Source: Prorocentrum cordatum
Taxonomy: Eukaryota
Assembly: GCA_963575745.1 (NCBI GenBank)
Contig: CAUYUJ010000303.1
Location: 620,001 to 662,458, forward strand
Length of the DNA stretch: 42,458 bases
Direction of reading: 5' to 3'
The notes under the pieces were generated by a model. The model made no database searches. It was not told the DNA's origin and saw only the letters and a list, made by a program, of their open reading frames with translations. The position numbers were made by a program, and so were the translations under genes. This document shows positions 2,176 through 16,129 of the stretch, piece after piece. Each line of letters opens with the position of its first letter. Positions within the stretch are counted from its first letter, which is position 1.

Positions 2176-2746
2176 ATGATTATGATTCAGCATGCGAGCC
2201 AAATCTTGTTTGAGGAGGCCCTGGGAGGTACGAAGCGCGCAACGCCAACCAATACGACAGCAAACCACTTGGCGTGTGCATTGCAGTTGATTTGCAGTGC
2301 ACTGTTTTGCAATGACCTGGCATCGCTCGGACGTAATCATTTTTTCTCGGCGAGGACCATCCTGGACCATCGAGCAAAAAAACACGCACGACACCGAAAC
2401 ATGCACGGGAAATGGACGTCCGAGCGACGGCAAGATGATAGGTTGGTATTCTTCGGGGTGCCGCTGTGTCGCTGCTAGGGCTTTAGCTTCTGATCACGGT
2501 TCCACGTTCGATACGAATTTGGTTTGAGGAGGTTCAGGGAGGTGCGAACCGCGCAGCGCCAAGGATTACGTCGAGATCAGAACAACAGTTTGCGCGTTGC
2601 AGAGTTTGTTGCATTGTTACCTAACAGCGAAGACTGATAGGTTTCTAGTGGGCTCAAAAGAAAGCACTCACAGATCACTCCACAGGGGGGTCCGGGCAGG
2701 TGTTGGGAGTTGCCGGGCGGCAGTGTGCCGGGCTCGTTTTTCACCA

Positions 2747-3241
2747 ACAGTCACACACTTCGTGCTCTTCGAGTTCCCAGAACTCCATTCCCAGGCCACA
2801 TTCTGAATACCCGGATGCAACAGTCACACACTTCGTGCTCTTCGAGATCCCAGAACGCCATTCCCGGGCCACATTTGAATAACCGGATGCAACAGTCACA
2901 CACTTCGTGCTCTTCGAGATCCCAGAACGCCATTCCCGGGCCACATTTGAATAACCGGATGCAACAGTCACACACTTCGTGCTCTTCGAGTTCCCAGAAC
3001 TCCATTCCCGGGCCACATTTTGGATGCCCGGAGCCAACTGTAGGCCACTTCGTGCTCTTCGAGTTCCCAGAACTCCATTCCCGGGCCACATTTTGAATGC
3101 CCGGAGCCAACTGTAGGCCACTTCGTGCTCTTCGAGTTCCCAGAACTCCATTCCCGGGCCACATTTTGAATGCCCGTAGCCAACTGTAGGCAACTTCGTG
3201 CTCTTCGACTTCCCAGAACTCCCATTCCTGGGCCACATTTT
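2747..3241. repeat. Minisatellite of about 63-72-bp units (about 7 copies); two more units at about 4111-4254
   Basis: The core cacttcgtgctcttcgagttcccagaactccattcccgggccacattt is repeated in tandem with two alternative spacer types. Confidence 0.93.
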
Positions 3242-3254
3242 CAGCAGGGGCAAG

Positions 3255-3950: not shown

Positions 3951-4102
3951 AGGCAGGCTGAGGCTGAGGCTGTGACTGCGACTGCCGTTGCCGCTGCGAC
4001 TGTCATCGCGAATGCGACTACGACTGCGAGAACAGCAGAATTCGACAACTGGATGTTCATCTGAATCTTAAGGGGAATGCTTTCAGATATGCTTCTACAC
4101 AT
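3951..4102 (+). repeat. 152-bp direct repeat, left copy
   Basis: Colinear with 7465-7616; 7 substitutions counted by eye. Confidence 0.92.
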
Positions 4103-4383
4103 TCTGGAGGGCCGGATGCAACAGTCACACACTTCGTGCTCTTCGAGTTCCCAGAACTCCATTCCTGGGCCACATTTTGGATGCCCGGAGCCAACTCTAG
4201 TCCACTTCCTGGTCTTCGAGTTCCCAGAACTCCATTCCCGGGCCACATTTTGAATAGCCAGACGCTTCATAATCCTTCCGCCACAGCCGTGTTTGGTTCA
4301 GGACTTGCTAGTGACACTGCAGTCCACTGCATTCAATCGTGCCACTGCATTCATTCACTGCAGTCCACTGAGTTTCGATTGCA

Positions 4384-6576
4384 ATGGCGTTCCCCTGGCC
4401 GTACCCCCATGTCCAACGTTCATCCGCAGCCTCTGCTCCGCGAGGCTCGTCCGAAGTGTCGCCGCCTCGCGGTGCTTCTCAGCCTGCGCCGCCTCGCGGT
4501 GCTTCTCAGCCTGCGGAGGAAGGTGGACAGACGCCTGGTTCTGGCGCTGTGCAGCCTGCGTCTTTCACGGTCGCCTCGTTCAATTTCGGGTTCGAGCAGG
4601 GCATGATGACTGGTAAGCAGGCGGCCACTCACTGCGCTAACTTCGGAAGGGTGTGCGCCACGATAGTGGAGACCGCTGATGCTGATATGGTCTGTGGCTG
4701 CGAGGTCGGTGCGTTCCGTGAAGGCTTTCGCCGAGCAGGGATCAACGTGACAGAGATCCTCAGTAAGCCTTTCGGTGATGGCATTCGCTTCTCGGAGGTC
4801 GACAACTACTTGACTCTCTGGGGGTTCCGCGGTGCTTCTCAGCCTGCGGAACTGACTCTGTGCGAAGACAGCAAAGTTTACAGGCCTCCTAGCGGCCGAG
4901 AGATTGATGCTGTTATTTCACATTTTGAGGTGAACAAACCAGGCCATGACAAGTTCCACGTGGTGATCGCCAACATGCACATCGTGTGCGGCAAGAAACC
5001 GCCGACCATCCAGACTCGAAAGCGGACAGTTCGCCATCTCCGCTTGCACCTGGACTGCATGGCTCAGATTCTCAATGCTTCGGAGCCGCACGTGCCAGTC
5101 GTTCTGCTTGTAGTCGGCGACGACAACCTGACTTTCCAGGAGGCGCGGGAGGCTTACCAGCGCCAGCAGAACGACGAGAAGCTCTGGGAGGTCCATGCCA
5201 CTCCGGCCGACCTCAAAGGCGACCACGTCGCGGTCTGCGGAGCAGTCGCCCGTTTCTGCTCCATTGCCGTTGGCGCGTCTTTTACGGATCGTGGCATGCG
5301 CAACGACGCACACGATGCGGTGGCGGTTGTGCTCACTCTCCCTGGTGCTATTCAGCCTGGGGAGAGCAAGAGGCGGAAGATTGTCGTCGAAAACGTCTCC
5401 GACGCCGACGTCAGCGTACAGGCGGACGCCGAGTCTTCTGTGCATTGGGATCGGTCGCCGAGTTCTACTCCTCCGCTTTCACCGACTTCACCGGGTGATC
5501 CCGACTACGTCGAGGATGTCGTTCAGAATCGCGCGAACGACTTGCACAGGGAGCTGAGGCAGCTTTGGGACGAAAGGTACGACGAGGAGTACGATCCGAA
5601 AGTCCTCCATCATCTCAGTCTCTTGCTTTTCAAAAAGAGGAAGTCCACGGAGCCAGCGGACACTGATCCAGCTGGCGCTCCTCAGCCTGGCTCGGAATAT
5701 GACACGGCCTTTGCGTCTCAGGAGGAGACTGGCCGAGCCATTCTCTCTGTCCTTAAGCTTCGACATGACTTTCTGCGGAGCAAGAACATCGACGACATGC
5801 GCTACGTTCTCACGGAGCCTGAGCGCCAGGAATTGGTCAGAGTAGCTCGCGACCAGTACGAGCAGTCGCGGCAGCAGCGTGCGCTTCAGGAACGGGATGT
5901 CGAAAAGGGAAAAGCGAGAGGCAAGTCTGCGCCACAAGGGGGCCATGCGGTTCCGCAGGGTCCTAACAAAGGGCCAGGCGGTAAGAAAGGTTCTCACGGT
6001 GCTTCTCAGCCTGCGGGAAAAGGTGGCCAGGCCAAGGGTGCAGGTCTGGGTAGCGTCGCCAAGTTTGTGAAAGACCAGAAGCGTAAGCGGTGGCATCGCC
6101 ATTTGCAACGTGTGGCCGGTACCAAACAGATCTGGGAGGTGCTGGCCTTCTCAGGGCGCTTCGACGTTGATTGGCTAACGCAAGCGTTGCAAGCTGATCA
6201 CAGTGAGGGCCGTGATGCAGCAGTTCCCGAGGAAGCTCTGCGGCAACAGCGGCGCCGGCTGCACCACCAGAAGGCCGAGGCCATCGCGCGCTACAACGAG
6301 GGGGAGCGGCTTTCCCGCCATCTGTCTGCCCAGGCTGGCCAGCCAAAGCCGAACTTCACGCGCAGGCAGCTGGACGTGTTGCAGATGTTTGAGAGCGGAG
6401 AGCTGCTTCAAATCCGCAACCAAGCGATTCTGGCGTTGGGGCACGGCCGTCTGTTCAGGGCCGATGGCGACTACCTGGACATCGGCGGCAGCACGGGCGG
6501 TGGCTCCAGGCGCATCATCGATTCTTGGCAGCCGCCGGACTGGCGTGACTTCCTCCAAGACGATCAGGACATCTGA
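4384..6576 (+). CDS. Intronless 730-aa ORF: EEP (endonuclease/exonuclease/phosphatase, APE-like) domain plus an uncharacterised C-terminal helical region; probably mobile-element encoded
   Basis: EEP motifs occur in the expected order at about 4564-5340: FTVASFN, DADMVCGCEV, VVIANMH, LVVGDDNL, KGDHVAV, NDAHDAVAVVL. It is a long non-repetitive ORF. The true start codon is uncertain. Confidence 0.72.
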   Translation: MAFPWPYPHVQRSSAASAPRGSSEVSPPRGASQPAPPRGASQPAEEGGQTPGSGAVQPASFTVASFNFGFEQGMMTGKQAATHCANFGRVCATIVETADADMVCGCEVGAFREGFRRAGINVTEILSKPFGDGIRFSEVDNYLTLWGFRGASQPAELTLCEDSKVYRPPSGREIDAVISHFEVNKPGHDKFHVVIANMHIVCGKKPPTIQTRKRTVRHLRLHLDCMAQILNASEPHVPVVLLVVGDDNLTFQEAREAYQRQQNDEKLWEVHATPADLKGDHVAVCGAVARFCSIAVGASFTDRGMRNDAHDAVAVVLTLPGAIQPGESKRRKIVVENVSDADVSVQADAESSVHWDRSPSSTPPLSPTSPGDPDYVEDVVQNRANDLHRELRQLWDERYDEEYDPKVLHHLSLLLFKKRKSTEPADTDPAGAPQPGSEYDTAFASQEETGRAILSVLKLRHDFLRSKNIDDMRYVLTEPERQELVRVARDQYEQSRQQRALQERDVEKGKARGKSAPQGGHAVPQGPNKGPGGKKGSHGASQPAGKGGQAKGAGLGSVAKFVKDQKRKRWHRHLQRVAGTKQIWEVLAFSGRFDVDWLTQALQADHSEGRDAAVPEEALRQQRRRLHHQKAEAIARYNEGERLSRHLSAQAGQPKPNFTRRQLDVLQMFESGELLQIRNQAILALGHGRLFRADGDYLDIGGSTGGGSRRIIDSWQPPDWRDFLQDDQDI

Positions 6577-6589
6577 GTTTTGCAAGTCT

Positions 6590-6850
6590 CCCTGCCCGCG
6601 GTGCTTCTCAGCCTGCGGTCTGCCGCTCTCCAGCTGCGGTCTCGAGCAGTAGTGTTCGAAAGCATGCGAGTTCCTGCGGTGCTTCTCAGCCTGCAGGTTT
6701 CGCAGCTTGCGCTCTGCAGTACAAGTGCTTTTCAGCATGCGACATCCTGCGGTGCTTCTCAGCCTGCAGGGTTCGCAGCGTGCGGTTTGCAATGCATTCC
6801 TTTTCAGTATGCGAGTTCCTGCGGTGTTTCTCAGGTTGCAGGGCTCCGAG
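6590..6850 (+). repeat. Degenerate ~72-78-bp tandem repeat built on cctgcggtgcttctcagcctgc
   Basis: Motif copies at about 6600, 6678, 6751 and 6823, mostly preceded by gcatgcgagttcctgc-like sequence. Confidence 0.8.
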
Positions 6851-7166
6851 GCTCTTCGCTTCGATGCCAATGTTTTCAGACACCGTAGCTCCGTTCCGTA
6901 AACATCTTCCAAGAGCCGCTCGCAACCTTTTGCAGCTGGCGGTCTGCAGACGTAGTCTGTCTCAGCATGCGAGCTCCCGCACGCTTCGCCGGCTTTTGCT
7001 GCGCGGACAATTTTCTCACACACGTCAGCGCCGTTTGTAGGCGTCAGAAAAACATGTAGACATTCACGAAGGGCTCAGTCTGTATATCGTCACATCATTA
7101 CATACGCAGTCGTCGAACACATCGGTGTACATTCAGCGCTTTGTCCTTCTAGCTGGGTCGCTTCGT

Positions 7167-7486
7167 GCTGAGGCTGAGGCTGATGCAGGCTGAGGCTGAG
7201 GCAGGCTGAGGCTGAGGCCGAGGCCGACGGCAGACTGAGGCTGAGGCTGAAGCAGGCTGAGGCTGAGGCAGAGGCAGGCTGAGGCTGAGGCTGAGGCAGG
7301 CTGATGCTGAGGCAGGCTGAGGCTGAGGCTGAGGCTGATGCAGGCTGAGGCTGAGGCAGGCTGAGGCTGAGGCCGAGGCCGAAGGCAGACTGAGGCTGAG
7401 GCTGAAGCAGGCTGAGGCTGAGGCTGAGGCAGGCTGAGGCTGAGGCAGGCTGAGGCTGAGGCTGAGGCAGGCTGAGGCTGAGGCTG
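7167..7486. repeat. (GAGGCT)n/(GAGGCAGGCT)n microsatellite
   Basis: Directly visible tandem hexamer/decamer; it runs into the right direct repeat. Confidence 0.95.
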
Positions 7487-7616
7487 TGACTGCGACTGCC
7501 GTTGCCACTGCGACTGTCATCGCGAATGCGACTACGACTGCGAGAACAGCAGAATTCTACAACTGGATTCTCATCCGAATCTTAAGGGGAATGCTTCCAG
7601 ATATGCTCCTACACAT
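7465..7616 (+). repeat. 152-bp direct repeat, right copy
   Basis: Matches 3951-4102. Confidence 0.92.
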
Positions 7617-11500: not shown

Positions 11501-12032
11501 AGTCCAACGGCGGGTGAGTGCAGCGGGGCGGCGGCGGCGGCGACGGGCGGGAACGGGATCGCCGGTGCCGCAATCGGGCGTTTTACGAGGAGACCCTAGG
11601 CGACGACGGACGGGAACGGGGCCGCTGGGGCCGCGGACGGGCCCAGTTCCTTGGAAGGGACGCGCGAAGCTTGCTGAGGCCCTCTGGGGGGCAGTCGTCC
11701 GCAGTCTTGGGCCACCTCGCGGCATCTTGGAGCTGTCTTGAGTCGCCGATACATTACCTCAAAACGGACACGTGCTTTTCGGACGTTTGCGAGCAGTTAC
11801 TTTGCGAGTAGTGGAACGAGCTTGTCTATTGAGAGCCTCTTGACGCTGGCCACCCTTTGATCCTTTCCCTCGTGTGTTCCCGCCCCGGAAGCGCTCGAGG
11901 AGCGCTCCAGAGGGCCCTGGGACCGCGCCCAGGAGCGAGACCATCTGTGACCCGGTCTTGCAGCGGGGTCCTCAGAGGTTTCCCAGAGGCCAGGCGGGCC
12001 TTCGCCAGGGGCAGTCTTCTCTGGGGCCCAGG

Positions 12033-12235
12033 GTCGGGCCGGACGAAAGGGGGGGACAGGGAAAGGGGGGATCACGAAATCTGCTGCATGCAGCGGGTTT
12101 CGGCCCCGCCGAGGGGCCGATTCCTCGATACATGGCCGCCTCCCGGCGCCGGGAGGCGCCGGGAAAATCAGCTACGTGAGCTGATTCTCAAACCCCCCCC
12201 CCCCTTTGCTATCCCCCCCTTGCGCCCGGCCCGAC
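12033..12235. mobile_element. MITE-like element with imperfect ~45-50-bp terminal inverted repeats
   Basis: The left end gtcgggccggacgaaagggggggacagggaaagggggg is roughly the reverse complement of the right end cccccctttgctatcccccccttgcgcccggcccgac. The TSD is ambiguous. Confidence 0.6.
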
Positions 12236-12345
12236 GGGGGCCGCCACGCGCGCGCGAGTTGGTGTTGTGCAGCACGTACTCTGAACCTCTCACCACAGGT
12301 TCTGGCACGCCTTTAGCCCAATGGGCCAGCGGATTGCATGCGAAG

Positions 12346-13332
12346 GTCATCGCCAAGGATCGCAAAGGCATCTGGAGCCTCGTGGCGGAGATGCGGGGAG
12401 CTGGGGTCAAGGCGAACTCGGTGACCTGCTCCATCTTGCTGAAGTCCCTGACAGAGTATTCCAGCGAGGCAGAGGTCAAGCGGGTTACCGACCTGATCGA
12501 GGAGATCGAGGAGAGCATCGACGAGGTCCTGTTCTCCTCGGTCATCGAGGCCTGCCTGCGCATCAAGCAGCTCGCTCTTCTGACGAACATCATGCGCCGC
12601 CACAGGCAAAAGGGCGGCTTCGTGAACCTGACGGCCCCCACCTACGGTTCGATGATCAAGGCGTACGGGCAGGCGGGCGACGTGGCGCGGGTGCGCGAGC
12701 TGTGGCAGGAGATGGAGGAAAGGGGCGTGAAGCCGACGTCGATCACGCTCGGCTGCATGACAGAGGCGCTGGTGGTGAACGGCGAGGCGGAGGAAGCTTT
12801 TCAGTTGCTGCACCAGCAGCTCGACACGGAGGAGCGGAAAGCCAGCATCAACACCGTTATCTATTCTACAGTCTTGAAGGGTTTCGCAGTCGCCAAGAAC
12901 ATCAATAAGGTCTTCGCCGTGTACAAGGAGATGAGGCAGAGCGGGTACGCTTGCAATACCATCACCTACAACACCATGCTCGACGCGTGCGCCAAGTGTT
13001 GTGCCATGTCGAGGGCCCCCAGCCTGCTGGAAGACATGAAGGGTTCATGCGTGGAGCCAGATATCATCACCTATTCGACCATCGTCAAGGGCTACTGCCT
13101 GGAGGGGGATGTCGATCGTGCCTTCCATGTCCTGGAGGACATGAAGAGCGACGGCAAGTTCGCTGCGGACGAAATCATGTACAATTCCATCCTCGACGGC
13201 TGCGCGAAGCAGCACCGCGTCGACGACGCGCTCCGAATCCTGGAGGAGATGAAGACCGCTGGCGTGGGCCCCTCGAACTACACGCTCAGCATCCTGGTGA
13301 AGCTGCTCGGGCATGCGCGCCGCCTGCCTCAG
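12346..13332 (+). CDS. Pentatricopeptide-repeat protein, first visible exon (5' exons not identified)
   Basis: Tandem ~35-aa PPR motifs (NSVTCSILLKS, TYGSMIKAYGQAGDV, NTITYNTMLDACAK, PDIITYSTIVKGYCLEGDVD, DEIMYNSILDGCAK, PSNYTLSILVKLLG). Putative acceptor aag|gtc; GC donor cag|gcgcgc. Confidence 0.88.
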
Positions 13333-13343
13333 GCGCGCGTTCT

Positions 13344-13558
<215 letters not shown>

Positions 13559-13703
13559 CGTCGCCATTTCAAGAGCGCTTGGCCGAAGAGGCGTGCAGGC
13601 GAGTCCCGACTTGCGTGAGGTTCAGATTTCTCTTCGGGCCTCGTCCCCCCCCCTCCCGACTTGCAAGCAGACTTGCTAGAATCCAAACAACAATTGCCTC
13701 CAG

Positions 13704-13997
13704 GCGTTCCGGCTAGTGGAGGACCTGAGCAAGCAGCACGGCTTCCGGCCCAACGTCCAGGTCTACACCTGCCTTGTCCAGGCTTGCGTCCTCAACCGGC
13801 GGCTCGAGAAGGCGCTCGCGCTGCACGACGAGATGGTGGCGGACTCCGGGTGCCGCGTCGACGAGAAGTTCTACGCGGTGCTCGCGCGCGGGTGCCTCCA
13901 GATGCAGCAGCCGATGAAGGCCGCGGAGGTCGTGAGGGCGGCCTACCGTCTGGAGGGGCACAGCCTGGCGTCGCCCGCGAGGAAGAACGCCCCAACG
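13704..13997 (+). CDS. PPR protein, next exon
   Basis: Acceptor ccag|gcgttc. A phase-0 join gives RRLPQ|AFRLVEDLSKQHGFRPNVQVYTCLVQAC, which completes a PPR motif. Donor acg|gtcgtg. Confidence 0.85.
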
Positions 13998-14579: not shown

Positions 14580-16129
14580 GCGGAGGACGACGGCTGCACG
14601 CCGACGCCAGCCCTTCCTGGGCCCGCCGCGGGCCGGGATCCGGCGCGCACGGCCCTCGGGCCGAGGGCGAGGAGGGCATGTACACCTCAGAGGAGGAAAA
14701 GGTACCCATACCTCGACCCCTCGCTCGCTTTCCCCTTTAGTGGCCCTCCTAGCGGCTCTCGTCACCACCGCTGGATTCGCCTCGAGATCCTGGTCAGATC
14801 GCACCCCGGGGAGGTCCGGGGAGTAGCGGTATCGGTACCTTTTGCTCTTTCCGACACCCTGCAGGTCAGCCACGCGCAGAGGGGGGTATGGGGCGGGGAA
14901 GGCTTCTTAGAAGCACCCCTGCTTCTTAGAAGGCGCGGGCCTTGTCTGTAGATGTAAGGCCGGCGCCGTCTGAGAAGCAGCCTCTTTCTAAGAAGCCCGC
15001 CCTCCTGCCCCTGCCCCCCTCTGCGCGCCGCCAAGCAGGGTCCACTACGATCTGATCGATCCGAATCGATCCCGATTCTGGCCGGCTCGTTCAAATTCGG
15101 TTCTGATGTTTGCATCGCGCTGTGGTGCATCTTGGCGCGGTCGATTCGAGTCGATTCCGATGCCGATGCAGACCGACCCAGTTTCCCGGTTCGATGCTCA
15201 CCTATCTTGCCATGAGACTTGGGCGTTGCATTTTTCCCACCAGGCGTTTCGAAGGGTTTTGGGCCCTGGGACCATCACAGGTTGATCTGGCTCGAAAAAT
15301 GCAGCACAGAGGTGCGGTCAAGGGCCCTTGCCGTGATTGCAACGTCGGATCTCAGACCAGACACCGATCATGGGCCCACGGGCGGCCTGGCCAGCATCGG
15401 TGCGGGTGTACAGATGCCGTCCTCCTACGTGAGTTCGAAGTTTTCGGATGCAACTCCTGGGAGGTCAAATTCTGATTTTGCCCTGGTCCGAAATCCAGCC
15501 GAATCCGACTTAATCCTGATTGATCCGGCTTCATCCCGCTAATTCCTGCAATCCGGCCCAATCCCGCTTAATCCAAGGCCCACTAACAGCCCCCCAATGG
15601 GGCGCACTCCTCCTTAATCCTTCCGACGAAGACCTCCCAGCAGTTGCCTCCTAAGAAGTTGGCGTTCCGCTGAGCACCGGCGGGCGGCCCCGGCCCCCTA
15701 TACATGCGGCCCCTTCTTCGGGCACTCGCGCGCGGGCACGCGCCAGCACTGAGAACAGCACGGGCGAAGCGAAGTCTTTGCAGCGCAACAAAGGAAGCGG
15801 CGCATGGAGTTAAGTCGGGCCTGTCCCTCCACAGGGGGCATATTCAAAAATAGTCAAAAAAATAGTCGTGGGATTATTTGTTCCATCATTTTCGAGCAGT
15901 TTGGGGTATTGTTCGACTGTGTTTTATTTTTTCTGCCCGACCTAAGCATAGAGGCAGGCAGTTGGGCGAGGAACGGGTGGGAAGAGACGTGCGGACACAT
16001 AAGCGTAAGGAGAGGCCATTTGCGGGAGGAGAGCACGTCGTTTTTTGTTTTAGTGGGCGTTATTGGGTCGCTGCAGTCGCCATGGATTCATCCGCCCTCG
16101 ACAGGAGGGCGATTGCGAGGGGGCGATAA

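Follow-up and report, generated by a model that had tools for sequence, protein, structure and literature searches.

Short hairpins repeated along one RNA are best described in RNA viruses, where dispersed copies serve packaging or recognition, as in the MS2-type operator hairpins with their bulged base and the repeated coding-region stem-loops of alphaviruses. In cellular messages, iron-responsive elements (IREs) occur in five copies in the 3' untranslated region (UTR) of the transferrin-receptor message, are restricted to untranslated regions and have a 6-nt loop, and the histone mRNA 3' stem-loop (RF00032) has no bulge and is a single 3'-terminal structure that signals where processing takes place. 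Bacterial genes contain in-frame palindromic repeats, such as the Rickettsia palindromic elements (RPEs) and the hairpin repeats recognised by Ssn nucleases, which are mobile DNA units of 65-150 nt present in both orientations. To our knowledge, few structured RNA signals outside viruses are kept at six or more sites of a coding sequence, hold synonymous codons fixed and impose a particular peptide on protein loops. Dispersed packaging signals of coronaviruses are treated in a 2026 bioRxiv item, and CAR-E, a linear 10-nt consensus that promotes export, is reported to recur within the coding regions of human mRNAs that naturally lack introns (PMC3575797). Here we analyse a stretch of 42,458 nt from the dinoflagellate Prorocentrum cordatum (GenBank assembly GCA_963575745.1, contig CAUYUJ010000303.1, positions 620,001 to 662,458 of the forward strand; hereafter the window), in which an intronless open reading frame (ORF) with a predicted endonuclease/exonuclease/phosphatase (EEP) fold and the sequence downstream of its stop codon, together the EEP unit, carry ten copies of a small hairpin.

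Like the dispersed hairpins of RNA viruses, those of the EEP unit are repeated sense-strand hairpins with a common loop motif: they occur in many copies, with a fixed loop and bulge on variable stems, and also in coding sequence, where codons are constrained. Unlike the viral hairpins, they are carried by a nuclear, tandemly arrayed gene family encoding an EEP-fold enzyme, and their copies are old and lie at conserved protein loops; no coat, Gag, nucleocapsid, capsid or replicase gene was found in the ORF or its neighbours. IREs, which are read by a dedicated protein, share with them the bulged pyrimidine, the fixed loop, the covarying stem and the presence of several copies per message, but differ in loop size and in their confinement to untranslated sequence, and the IRE family had no Rfam match to window positions 4300-7100. 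The histone stem-loop is similar in that its stem is topped by C-G and U-A and its U-rich 4-nt loop ends before AG, but it is bulge-free, present as a single 3' copy and placed at a processing site, and it gave no Rfam match at E <= 10 either. The full Rfam 15 scan of that region at the same threshold matched no family, the single hit being a chance-level one to an unrelated family. Bacterial in-frame palindromic repeats are likewise hairpin DNA lying in frame within genes and translated as a tolerated loop, whereas the unit here is ~24 nt long, is always on the sense strand, is kept at orthologous sites and retains a G.U wobble. CAR-E (PMC3575797) also consists of short repeated elements that act in RNA within intronless coding sequence, but it is linear, whereas the element of the window is a covarying hairpin. 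Our literature search, outside which most subscription journals lay, found nothing on such hairpins in dinoflagellate genes or elements, nor on the GASQPA peptide that they encode. The element looks like an undescribed RNA tag rather than a protein motif, and its hairpin form, its sense-strand rule and its conservation through a large EEP-fold family are new details.

Hairpin copies, pairing and strand

The 16-mer GGTGCTTCTCAGCCTG occurs exactly seven times in the window, at 4471, 4498, 4831, 5998, 6600, 6678 and 6751, always on the plus strand, as a first-pass annotation made from the letters of this DNA had reported; the chance expectation is 0, with no match in 100 dinucleotide-preserving shuffles. 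Allowing up to three mismatches gave 12 matches versus 0.74 expected. The additional plus-strand sites are 5344, 5674, 6724 and 6823, three of which (5344, 5674 and 6823) had been listed as variants, and the single minus-strand match, at 14966, is probably due to chance. Another listed variant, at 4543, is present as a decayed copy, but it has four mismatches and scores only 10.6 bits (E 2.6) with the covariance model described below.

The earlier description of the motif as a linear word of 14-16 bp had to be replaced. Once the flanks are folded in, GGTGCTTCTCAGCCTG is the core of a hairpin of 9-12 bp, which consists, from outside to inside, of at least three variable outer pairs, C-G, G.U, G-C, a bulged U, G-C, C-G, U-A and a YCUC tetraloop. 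The ORF, its parts and the hairpin copies are listed here (pLDDT, predicted local distance difference test score).

4384..6576, plus strand: intronless ORF, 730 aa, stop codon included; member of a large unnamed family
4546..5412, plus strand: predicted EEP-fold domain, residues 55-343; AlphaFold2 pLDDT 91.5
5497..6573, plus strand: helical C-terminal region, residues 372-730; pLDDT 81.7; no fold match
4464..4493, plus strand: hairpin 1, coding, residues 30-35 (GASQPA), first copy of a 27-nt tandem duplication; 27.4 bits
4491..4520, plus strand: hairpin 2, coding, residues 39-44 (GASQPA); 38.1 bits
4536..4565, plus strand: decayed copy at an ancestral site, GAVQPA; the relative P0002 has GASQPA at that site
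4824..4853, plus strand: hairpin 3, coding, residues 150-155, in an EEP-domain loop with a pLDDT dip; 12-bp stem, -18.8 kcal/mol, z -5.3
5337..5366, plus strand: hairpin 4, coding, residues 321-326 (GAIQPG), in the linker after the EEP domain; outer stem different and compensated, z -4.1
5667..5696, plus strand: hairpin 5, coding, residues 431-436 (GAPQPG), in a loop with pLDDT <50
5991..6020, plus strand: hairpin 6, coding, residues 539-544 (GASQPA), in a segment with pLDDT <50
6593..6622, plus strand: hairpin 7, 3' untranslated part; 39.2 bits
6671..6700, plus strand: hairpin 8, 3' untranslated part, in a 73-nt tandem repeat; z -3.9
6717..6746, plus strand: degenerate related hairpin, three mismatches, with the bulge paired instead
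6744..6773, plus strand: hairpin 9, 3' untranslated part, in the 73-nt tandem repeat; z -3.8
6816..6845, plus strand: hairpin 10, weakened copy in the last 73-nt repeat; 23.2 bits

The ORF contains six copies, all in frame 0 and read as GASQPA, GAIQPG or GAPQPG, and the array continues past the stop codon, as had been noted, with four clear copies (6600, 6678, 6751 and 6823), three of them in the 73-nt tandem repeat. The first two copies (4471 and 4498) are carried by the 27-nt tandem duplication, and because of this overlapping duplicate the lowest-energy fold of hairpin 1 departs from the model form. Eight of the ten window copies adopted the exact model form, and z ranged from -1.2 to -5.3 in all ten.

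Covariation was examined in an alignment drawn from the window unit and 27 metagenome loci in which relatives of the ORF are encoded, taking every plus-strand match with up to three mismatches. These 121 matches yielded 106 distinct 30-nt copies, 11 from the window and 95 from the 27 loci. Copy selection made no use of the three outermost pairs, and these were paired in 74-86% of the copies by many pair types (G-C 59, C-G 20 and A-U 9 for one of them); one position beyond, pairing dropped to ~40%. Over nine pairs, 90.1% of the 954 cells were paired versus 76.3% in shuffles, and there were 119 double-change cells versus 39, with none of 500 shuffles attaining the observed value. When the 3' partner was slid by 1-3 columns as a control, pairing was just 30-46%. 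With the stem letters fixed and the loop and bulge left free, the loop read YCUC in 21 of the 27 coding copies and in 13 of the 20 remaining ones.

The strand bias was equally marked in the related loci. With up to three mismatches, the 27 loci (71,946 nt) contained 113 plus-strand matches and one minus-strand match. A covariance model built from the 106 copies and run on both strands of the 22 non-duplicate loci among them (54,530 nt) gave 98 matches at E <= 0.1, all on the plus strand, where the training copies are included, so that the empty minus strand is the informative part; a stem-only pattern gave 47 plus-strand matches and none on the minus strand. In the entire window, the same model gave ten matches at E <= 0.0023, all on the plus strand within 4468-6845 and arising by construction from copies of the training set, and the next best match had an E of 0.53. 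Among the 954 cells, G.U pairs numbered 146 and A.C combinations 23, and the G1.U15 wobble was retained in 85 of the 106 copies. Since G.U pairs would be mismatches on the opposite strand, these counts and the strand bias place the structure on the sense strand and favour RNA over DNA, suggesting that the hairpin acts in the sense transcript. They also speak against a double-stranded DNA binding site and against a chromatin-organising site, the latter being one of the roles that the first-pass annotation had offered for the motif.

Coding constraint and the gene family

Codon use was investigated at sites picked by peptide alone, not by DNA, which provided 22 GASQP peptides in the family ORFs. 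All 22 used GCT for Ala (18% elsewhere in the same ORFs), TCT for Ser (12%) and CAG for Gln (72%), and the majority used GGT for Gly (17 of 22, versus 16% elsewhere) and CCT for Pro (16 of 22, versus 19%), in ORFs whose G+C content at third codon positions is 0.68 elsewhere. The minor codons GGC, which changes the bulged U to C, and CCC, which changes G.U to G-C, preserve the structure, and a change of G2-C14 to A-U keeps the pair while altering the peptide. The earlier reading of the coding copies as GASQPA with fixed codons, one of them (4831) within the EEP domain, was thus borne out.

Inside the family coding envelopes 58 of 59 copies are in frame 0, and 65 of 72 are in frame 0 when whole stop-to-stop frames are counted. 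The peptide specified by frame 0, G-A-S-Q-P-A, is small, polar and harmless, and reading in either other frame produces Cys-rich or hydrophobic strings; tolerance by the protein would lead to just such a frame bias. On the predicted model, the six coding hairpins map to disordered loops or linkers of the window protein, namely the N-terminal tail, the EEP-domain loop where pLDDT dips, the linker and two segments with pLDDT <50. The hairpin is not confined to family genes, however. The suggestion that each element carries a private motif holds within the window, where all copies belong to the EEP unit, but in the related loci 37 of 96 copies lie outside the family coding envelopes, in 3' UTRs, spacers and, for some, unrelated neighbouring ORFs. 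In a conserved neighbouring gene (the P0169/P0170 family), one copy is read in frame +1 as RCFSAC within a 14-residue insertion, and P0171-P0173 are without that insertion. The fixed codons, the copies after the stop codon and the reading in another frame therefore indicate a nucleic-acid-level feature rather than a peptide motif, and selection most likely acts on the sense RNA.

The ORF belongs to a very large family, with 769 representatives at E <= 0.001 after 50% clustering and 71 at E <= 1e-30, whose members are named "hypothetical protein" at most. We found that all 27 related loci carry the motif, contrary to an absence from homologous ORFs, the outcome that the first-pass annotation had named as speaking against its reading, and the core was conserved in relatives down to 29-30% protein identity. 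GASQPA is the commonest 6-mer in 168 family proteins, with 76 occurrences. The recurrent sites fall at profile columns 17, about 122, about 290, 406, 495 and about 606; of the proteins that span a given site, between about one third and two thirds have it filled, and sporadic extra GASQPA sites often fall in insert states of the profile. The dispersed sites 4831, 5344, 5674 and 5998 are not tandem and are common to relatives of 30-60% identity, in which the surrounding DNA is 64-75% identical. On this comparison, most hairpin sites of the ORF are old and common to relatives.

Between relatives, hairpins come and go as whole modules. A site near residue 652 is filled in L008, L011, L017, L023, L025 and L026 and empty in the window, and the 27-nt duplication of the window is absent from P0001, a 96%-identical protein. 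Further tandem duplications with hairpins were found in L009 (54 nt) and in the 3' part of the window (73 nt). The notion that the motif was produced by a seeding process fits its gain as small modules, namely the 27- and 54-nt tandem duplications and the 14-residue insertion in the neighbouring gene, but it does not fit the ORF sites, most of which are old and shared. Among the differences listed for metagenome runs, only 6836 T>C hits a hairpin core, and it shifts that copy toward the consensus. The flanks of different copies have just 3-5 nt in common beyond the core, so no longer mobile unit was seen. Of the features of a miniature inverted-repeat transposable element or an RPE, in-frame presence and absence between relatives was observed, but not a defined unit with terminal repeats or target duplications in both orientations (0 of 98 matches on the other strand).

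In genomic contigs, family genes form head-to-tail arrays of paralogues, three in L011 and L015 and two in L008. They also adjoin an unrelated family in L020, and two further contigs (17,234 and 12,431 nt) contain members of both clusters. This neighbouring gene (L020 1201-3345, P0169) and its relatives P0170-P0175 form an unnamed 700-aa family without a confident Pfam match, which has the same hairpin at non-conserved sites; relatives of P0169 and P0170 were found at 41-44% identity. The most distant related locus (L031 1-7049, about 30% identity) has 15 hairpins in 7 kb, which span an EEP-family frame and the frames on either side of it, where AAA_19 and ubiquitin match weakly; it may be a multi-gene unit. 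Viral contigs gave seven single 17-mer matches, each alone in its locus, which were taken as chance.

The predicted structure of the protein was compared with solved ones. With the model of residues 55-343, Foldseek returned 290 PDB chains at E <= 0.001, the best of which (E about 1e-9) were 3mpr, a Bacteroides EEP protein, nocturnin, ANGEL2, DNase I and TDP2, and also CNOT6L; template-modelling scores for the EEP matches were 0.42-0.55, normalised to the model. The model has the four-layer alpha/beta sandwich fold of the EEP superfamily, and on this basis the ORF is predicted to encode a diverged EEP-fold nuclease/phosphatase domain, which would be the first fold-based annotation for the family. 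The family alignment contains the conserved motifs SFNFG, CEVG, NMH, GDDN, GDH and HD, which may correspond to the EEP catalytic Asn, Glu, His and Asp residues in their usual order. Pfam, including the Exo_endo_phos profile, matched neither the ORF protein nor 14 relatives, a 38-sequence family profile found no solved EEP protein among PDB sequences, and Atlas with the whole protein gave sub-threshold EEP leads only. For the C-terminal part, Foldseek found nothing at E <= 0.001, VIA gave generic helical pairs only (best Z 7.2) and Atlas gave nothing specific. Pfam detected no reverse transcriptase (RT) domain in the ORF, and no longer, fused relatives were found, which is weak evidence.

Three other origins were considered and set aside. 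A non-LTR (long interspersed nuclear element) retrotransposon with an APE-type endonuclease was rejected because the ORF has no RT and its neighbours in related loci are paralogues or the unrelated family. A search with a 16-nt part of the dinoflagellate spliced leader for a spliced-leader retrocopy gave one distant match with three mismatches in the window, which is the chance level. The core starts with GT and the loop ends with AG, as in a tiny intron or a trans-splice acceptor; however, the peptide is present in the predicted proteins of relatives, and the lack of joints at hairpins among the joints listed for metagenome runs also counted against a splice site.

Readings of the hairpin array

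A fixed loop, a bulged U and a wobble on a variable stem are the usual look of a protein-recognised RNA hairpin. We therefore propose, and lean towards, the reading that the hairpin is a multi-copy sense-RNA tag on transcripts of the EEP gene family, bound by a putative RNA-binding factor. The fixed loop, bulge and wobble would form the recognition surface for a factor specific for both sequence and shape, and the ~10 copies per transcript would mark these RNAs for a common fate, which could be assembly into a particular ribonucleoprotein, export or stabilisation as messages that lack introns, or recognition by the protein that the gene itself encodes. Within that protein, the EEP domain and the basic helical C-terminal part are no more than candidate readers. 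New copies would arise mainly through short tandem duplications and small insertions, and old ones would decay or go as whole modules.

A bolder version, possible but held only tentatively, is that each selfish or repeated family in this marine protist writes a private RNA hairpin through all its transcripts, coding sequence included, and that a cognate protein, here perhaps the family's own EEP/helical protein, reads it. Such an address system would separate a family's own transcripts from others, constrain its codons over the long term and be able to spread to neighbouring genes by small insertions.

Several observations weigh against the RNA tag. Conservation of the core in the 106-copy alignment is partly circular, as the copies were chosen by core likeness; the peptide-chosen codon test and the stem-only pattern search were designed to sidestep this. 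Third codon positions are only moderately more conserved in the hairpin cores than elsewhere (0.76 versus 0.63, from pairs that are not independent), and the window protein differs from the 96%-identical P0001 at three hairpin-coded residues, so recent copies are not frozen. The strand bias within genes could be partly inherited, the loci being oriented by gene, and the 37 copies outside family genes, although also all on the plus strand, may share the same transcription units. The C-terminal part matches no known RNA-binding fold by Foldseek, VIA or Atlas. Among the runs containing the stretch, none is recorded as RNA, and the RNA label of X19 and X20 is a guess; contigs from these two runs cross the hairpins at 4498, 4831, 5344 and 5998 gap-free, which shows only that these forms exist.

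Another RNA-level explanation, which we regard as rather unlikely, is a general element without a private reader that aids export or stability of the intronless message or slows the ribosome at domain borders for stepwise folding. It would suit the uninterrupted ORFs of the genomic contigs, the placement of coding copies at domain borders and loops, and the export promoted by repeated short consensus elements in intronless human coding sequence, as reported in PMC3575797. A mere pause or stability element, however, does not need a sequence-specific loop, bulge and wobble, ribosomes do not pass the four copies after the stop codon, and the quite different hairpin on another element of the same window (see below) argues for separate readers. 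That the element works in DNA is, in our view, unlikely. A hairpin formed in one DNA strand during transcription or replication could be a nuclease or recombinase site, possibly for the encoded EEP enzyme, and drive duplication, gene conversion or mobility, or the ~24-nt palindrome could itself be a tiny mobile insert, comparable to the bacterial in-frame palindromic elements. The retained wobble and the excess of G.U over A.C fit RNA better than either version, and random insertion would have given some opposite-orientation copies, none of which was found even outside genes. The short common flanks give no sign of the terminal repeats or target duplications that a longer mobile unit would have, and differing, covarying outer stems fit maintenance in place, not copy-and-paste; these points stand against a nuclease-like domain in the same gene, whole-module gain and loss, the insertion with a hairpin in the unrelated neighbouring gene, the head-to-tail paralogue arrays, and the direct repeats that bracket the unit together with a form without it in one metagenome run (X1), all of which a DNA-level element would explain.

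It is very unlikely that the motif has no function and owes its spread to local tandem duplication together with patchy gene conversion between paralogues of the arrays. The genes are tandemly arrayed, the 27-nt and 73-nt tandem repeats account for five of the ten window copies and L009 has its 54-nt duplication, but the four dispersed sites persist at 30-60% protein identity in DNA that is otherwise 64-75% identical, and without selection one would not expect conversion to be confined to 16-nt patches at six or more sites and to leave the outer stems compensated. The remaining alternative, a short linear motif in which GASQPA serves for cleavage, modification or docking and the repetition in the DNA only follows from it, is close to refuted. 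GASQPA is indeed the commonest 6-mer of the family, nearly all coding copies (58 of 59) are read in that frame and they sit in disordered loops, as linear motifs do; yet the codons are fixed against the codon bias of these ORFs, intergenic and untranslated stretches contain copies too, other reading frames are also used for the same DNA, the flanking codons are mutually complementary and covary, and variants exist that change the peptide and keep the pair.

The hairpin signal characterises a eukaryotic gene family that is very large and unnamed, and the 42-kb window contains a second, different array beside it. Should the hairpins prove to be private address tags, they would provide an entry to post-transcriptional control in a group of organisms in which such control is thought dominant, and, if truly private, they would allow practical sorting of repeats into families by tag.

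A variant of the hairpin was observed at 6717-6746 of the window and at 1945-1974 of L034. In both, C14 is changed to A and the usually bulged U is paired, resulting in a perfect 6-bp stem with no bulge. This form may be a second dialect of the proposed tag.

Surroundings of the unit

The EEP unit is bracketed by direct repeats.

3951..4102, plus strand: 152-nt direct repeat, left copy, 95% identical to the right copy and 3514 nt apart from it
7465..7616, plus strand: 152-nt direct repeat, right copy, preceded by a (GCTGAG)n array at 7167-7486

Each 152-nt repeat is preceded by a (GGCTGA)n-type array, and satellites also flank the unit. Contigs of run X1 join 4098 to 7614 with the unit absent, and a form without the 3.5-kb unit therefore exists; many two-state differences in the same run suggest several near-identical copies. 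Among the runs listed, the stretch is nearly identical in 20 runs of 14 studies, mostly marine metagenomes, in which the word depth of the 152-nt repeat is far above that of the ORF. A 73-nt satellite with very high word depth, at 2738-3251 and 4039-4262, flanks a long (GAG)n tract just upstream of the ORF.

The first-pass annotation had also ascribed a different motif to a copia element of the window, which proved correct. Between 24940 and 40676 there are 29 copies of CGGG-GNNA-CCCG, all on the plus strand, versus 0.17 expected; this sequence forms a stem of 4-5 bp with a GNNA tetraloop and runs through a large Copia-type element whose frames carry Tpt1/KptA, RING and RVT_2 domains. Like the EEP array, it consists of tiny one-strand hairpins through coding and non-coding parts, each element having its own hairpin. 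The EEP hairpin differs in being longer, in its bulge and wobble, in having a pyrimidine loop in place of a GNRA-type one, and in belonging to a gene family without reverse transcriptase or transposase.

Elsewhere in the window, positions 11833-13713 contain an uninterrupted frame of 627 aa that is rich in pentatricopeptide repeats (PPR_2, E 2.9e-54).

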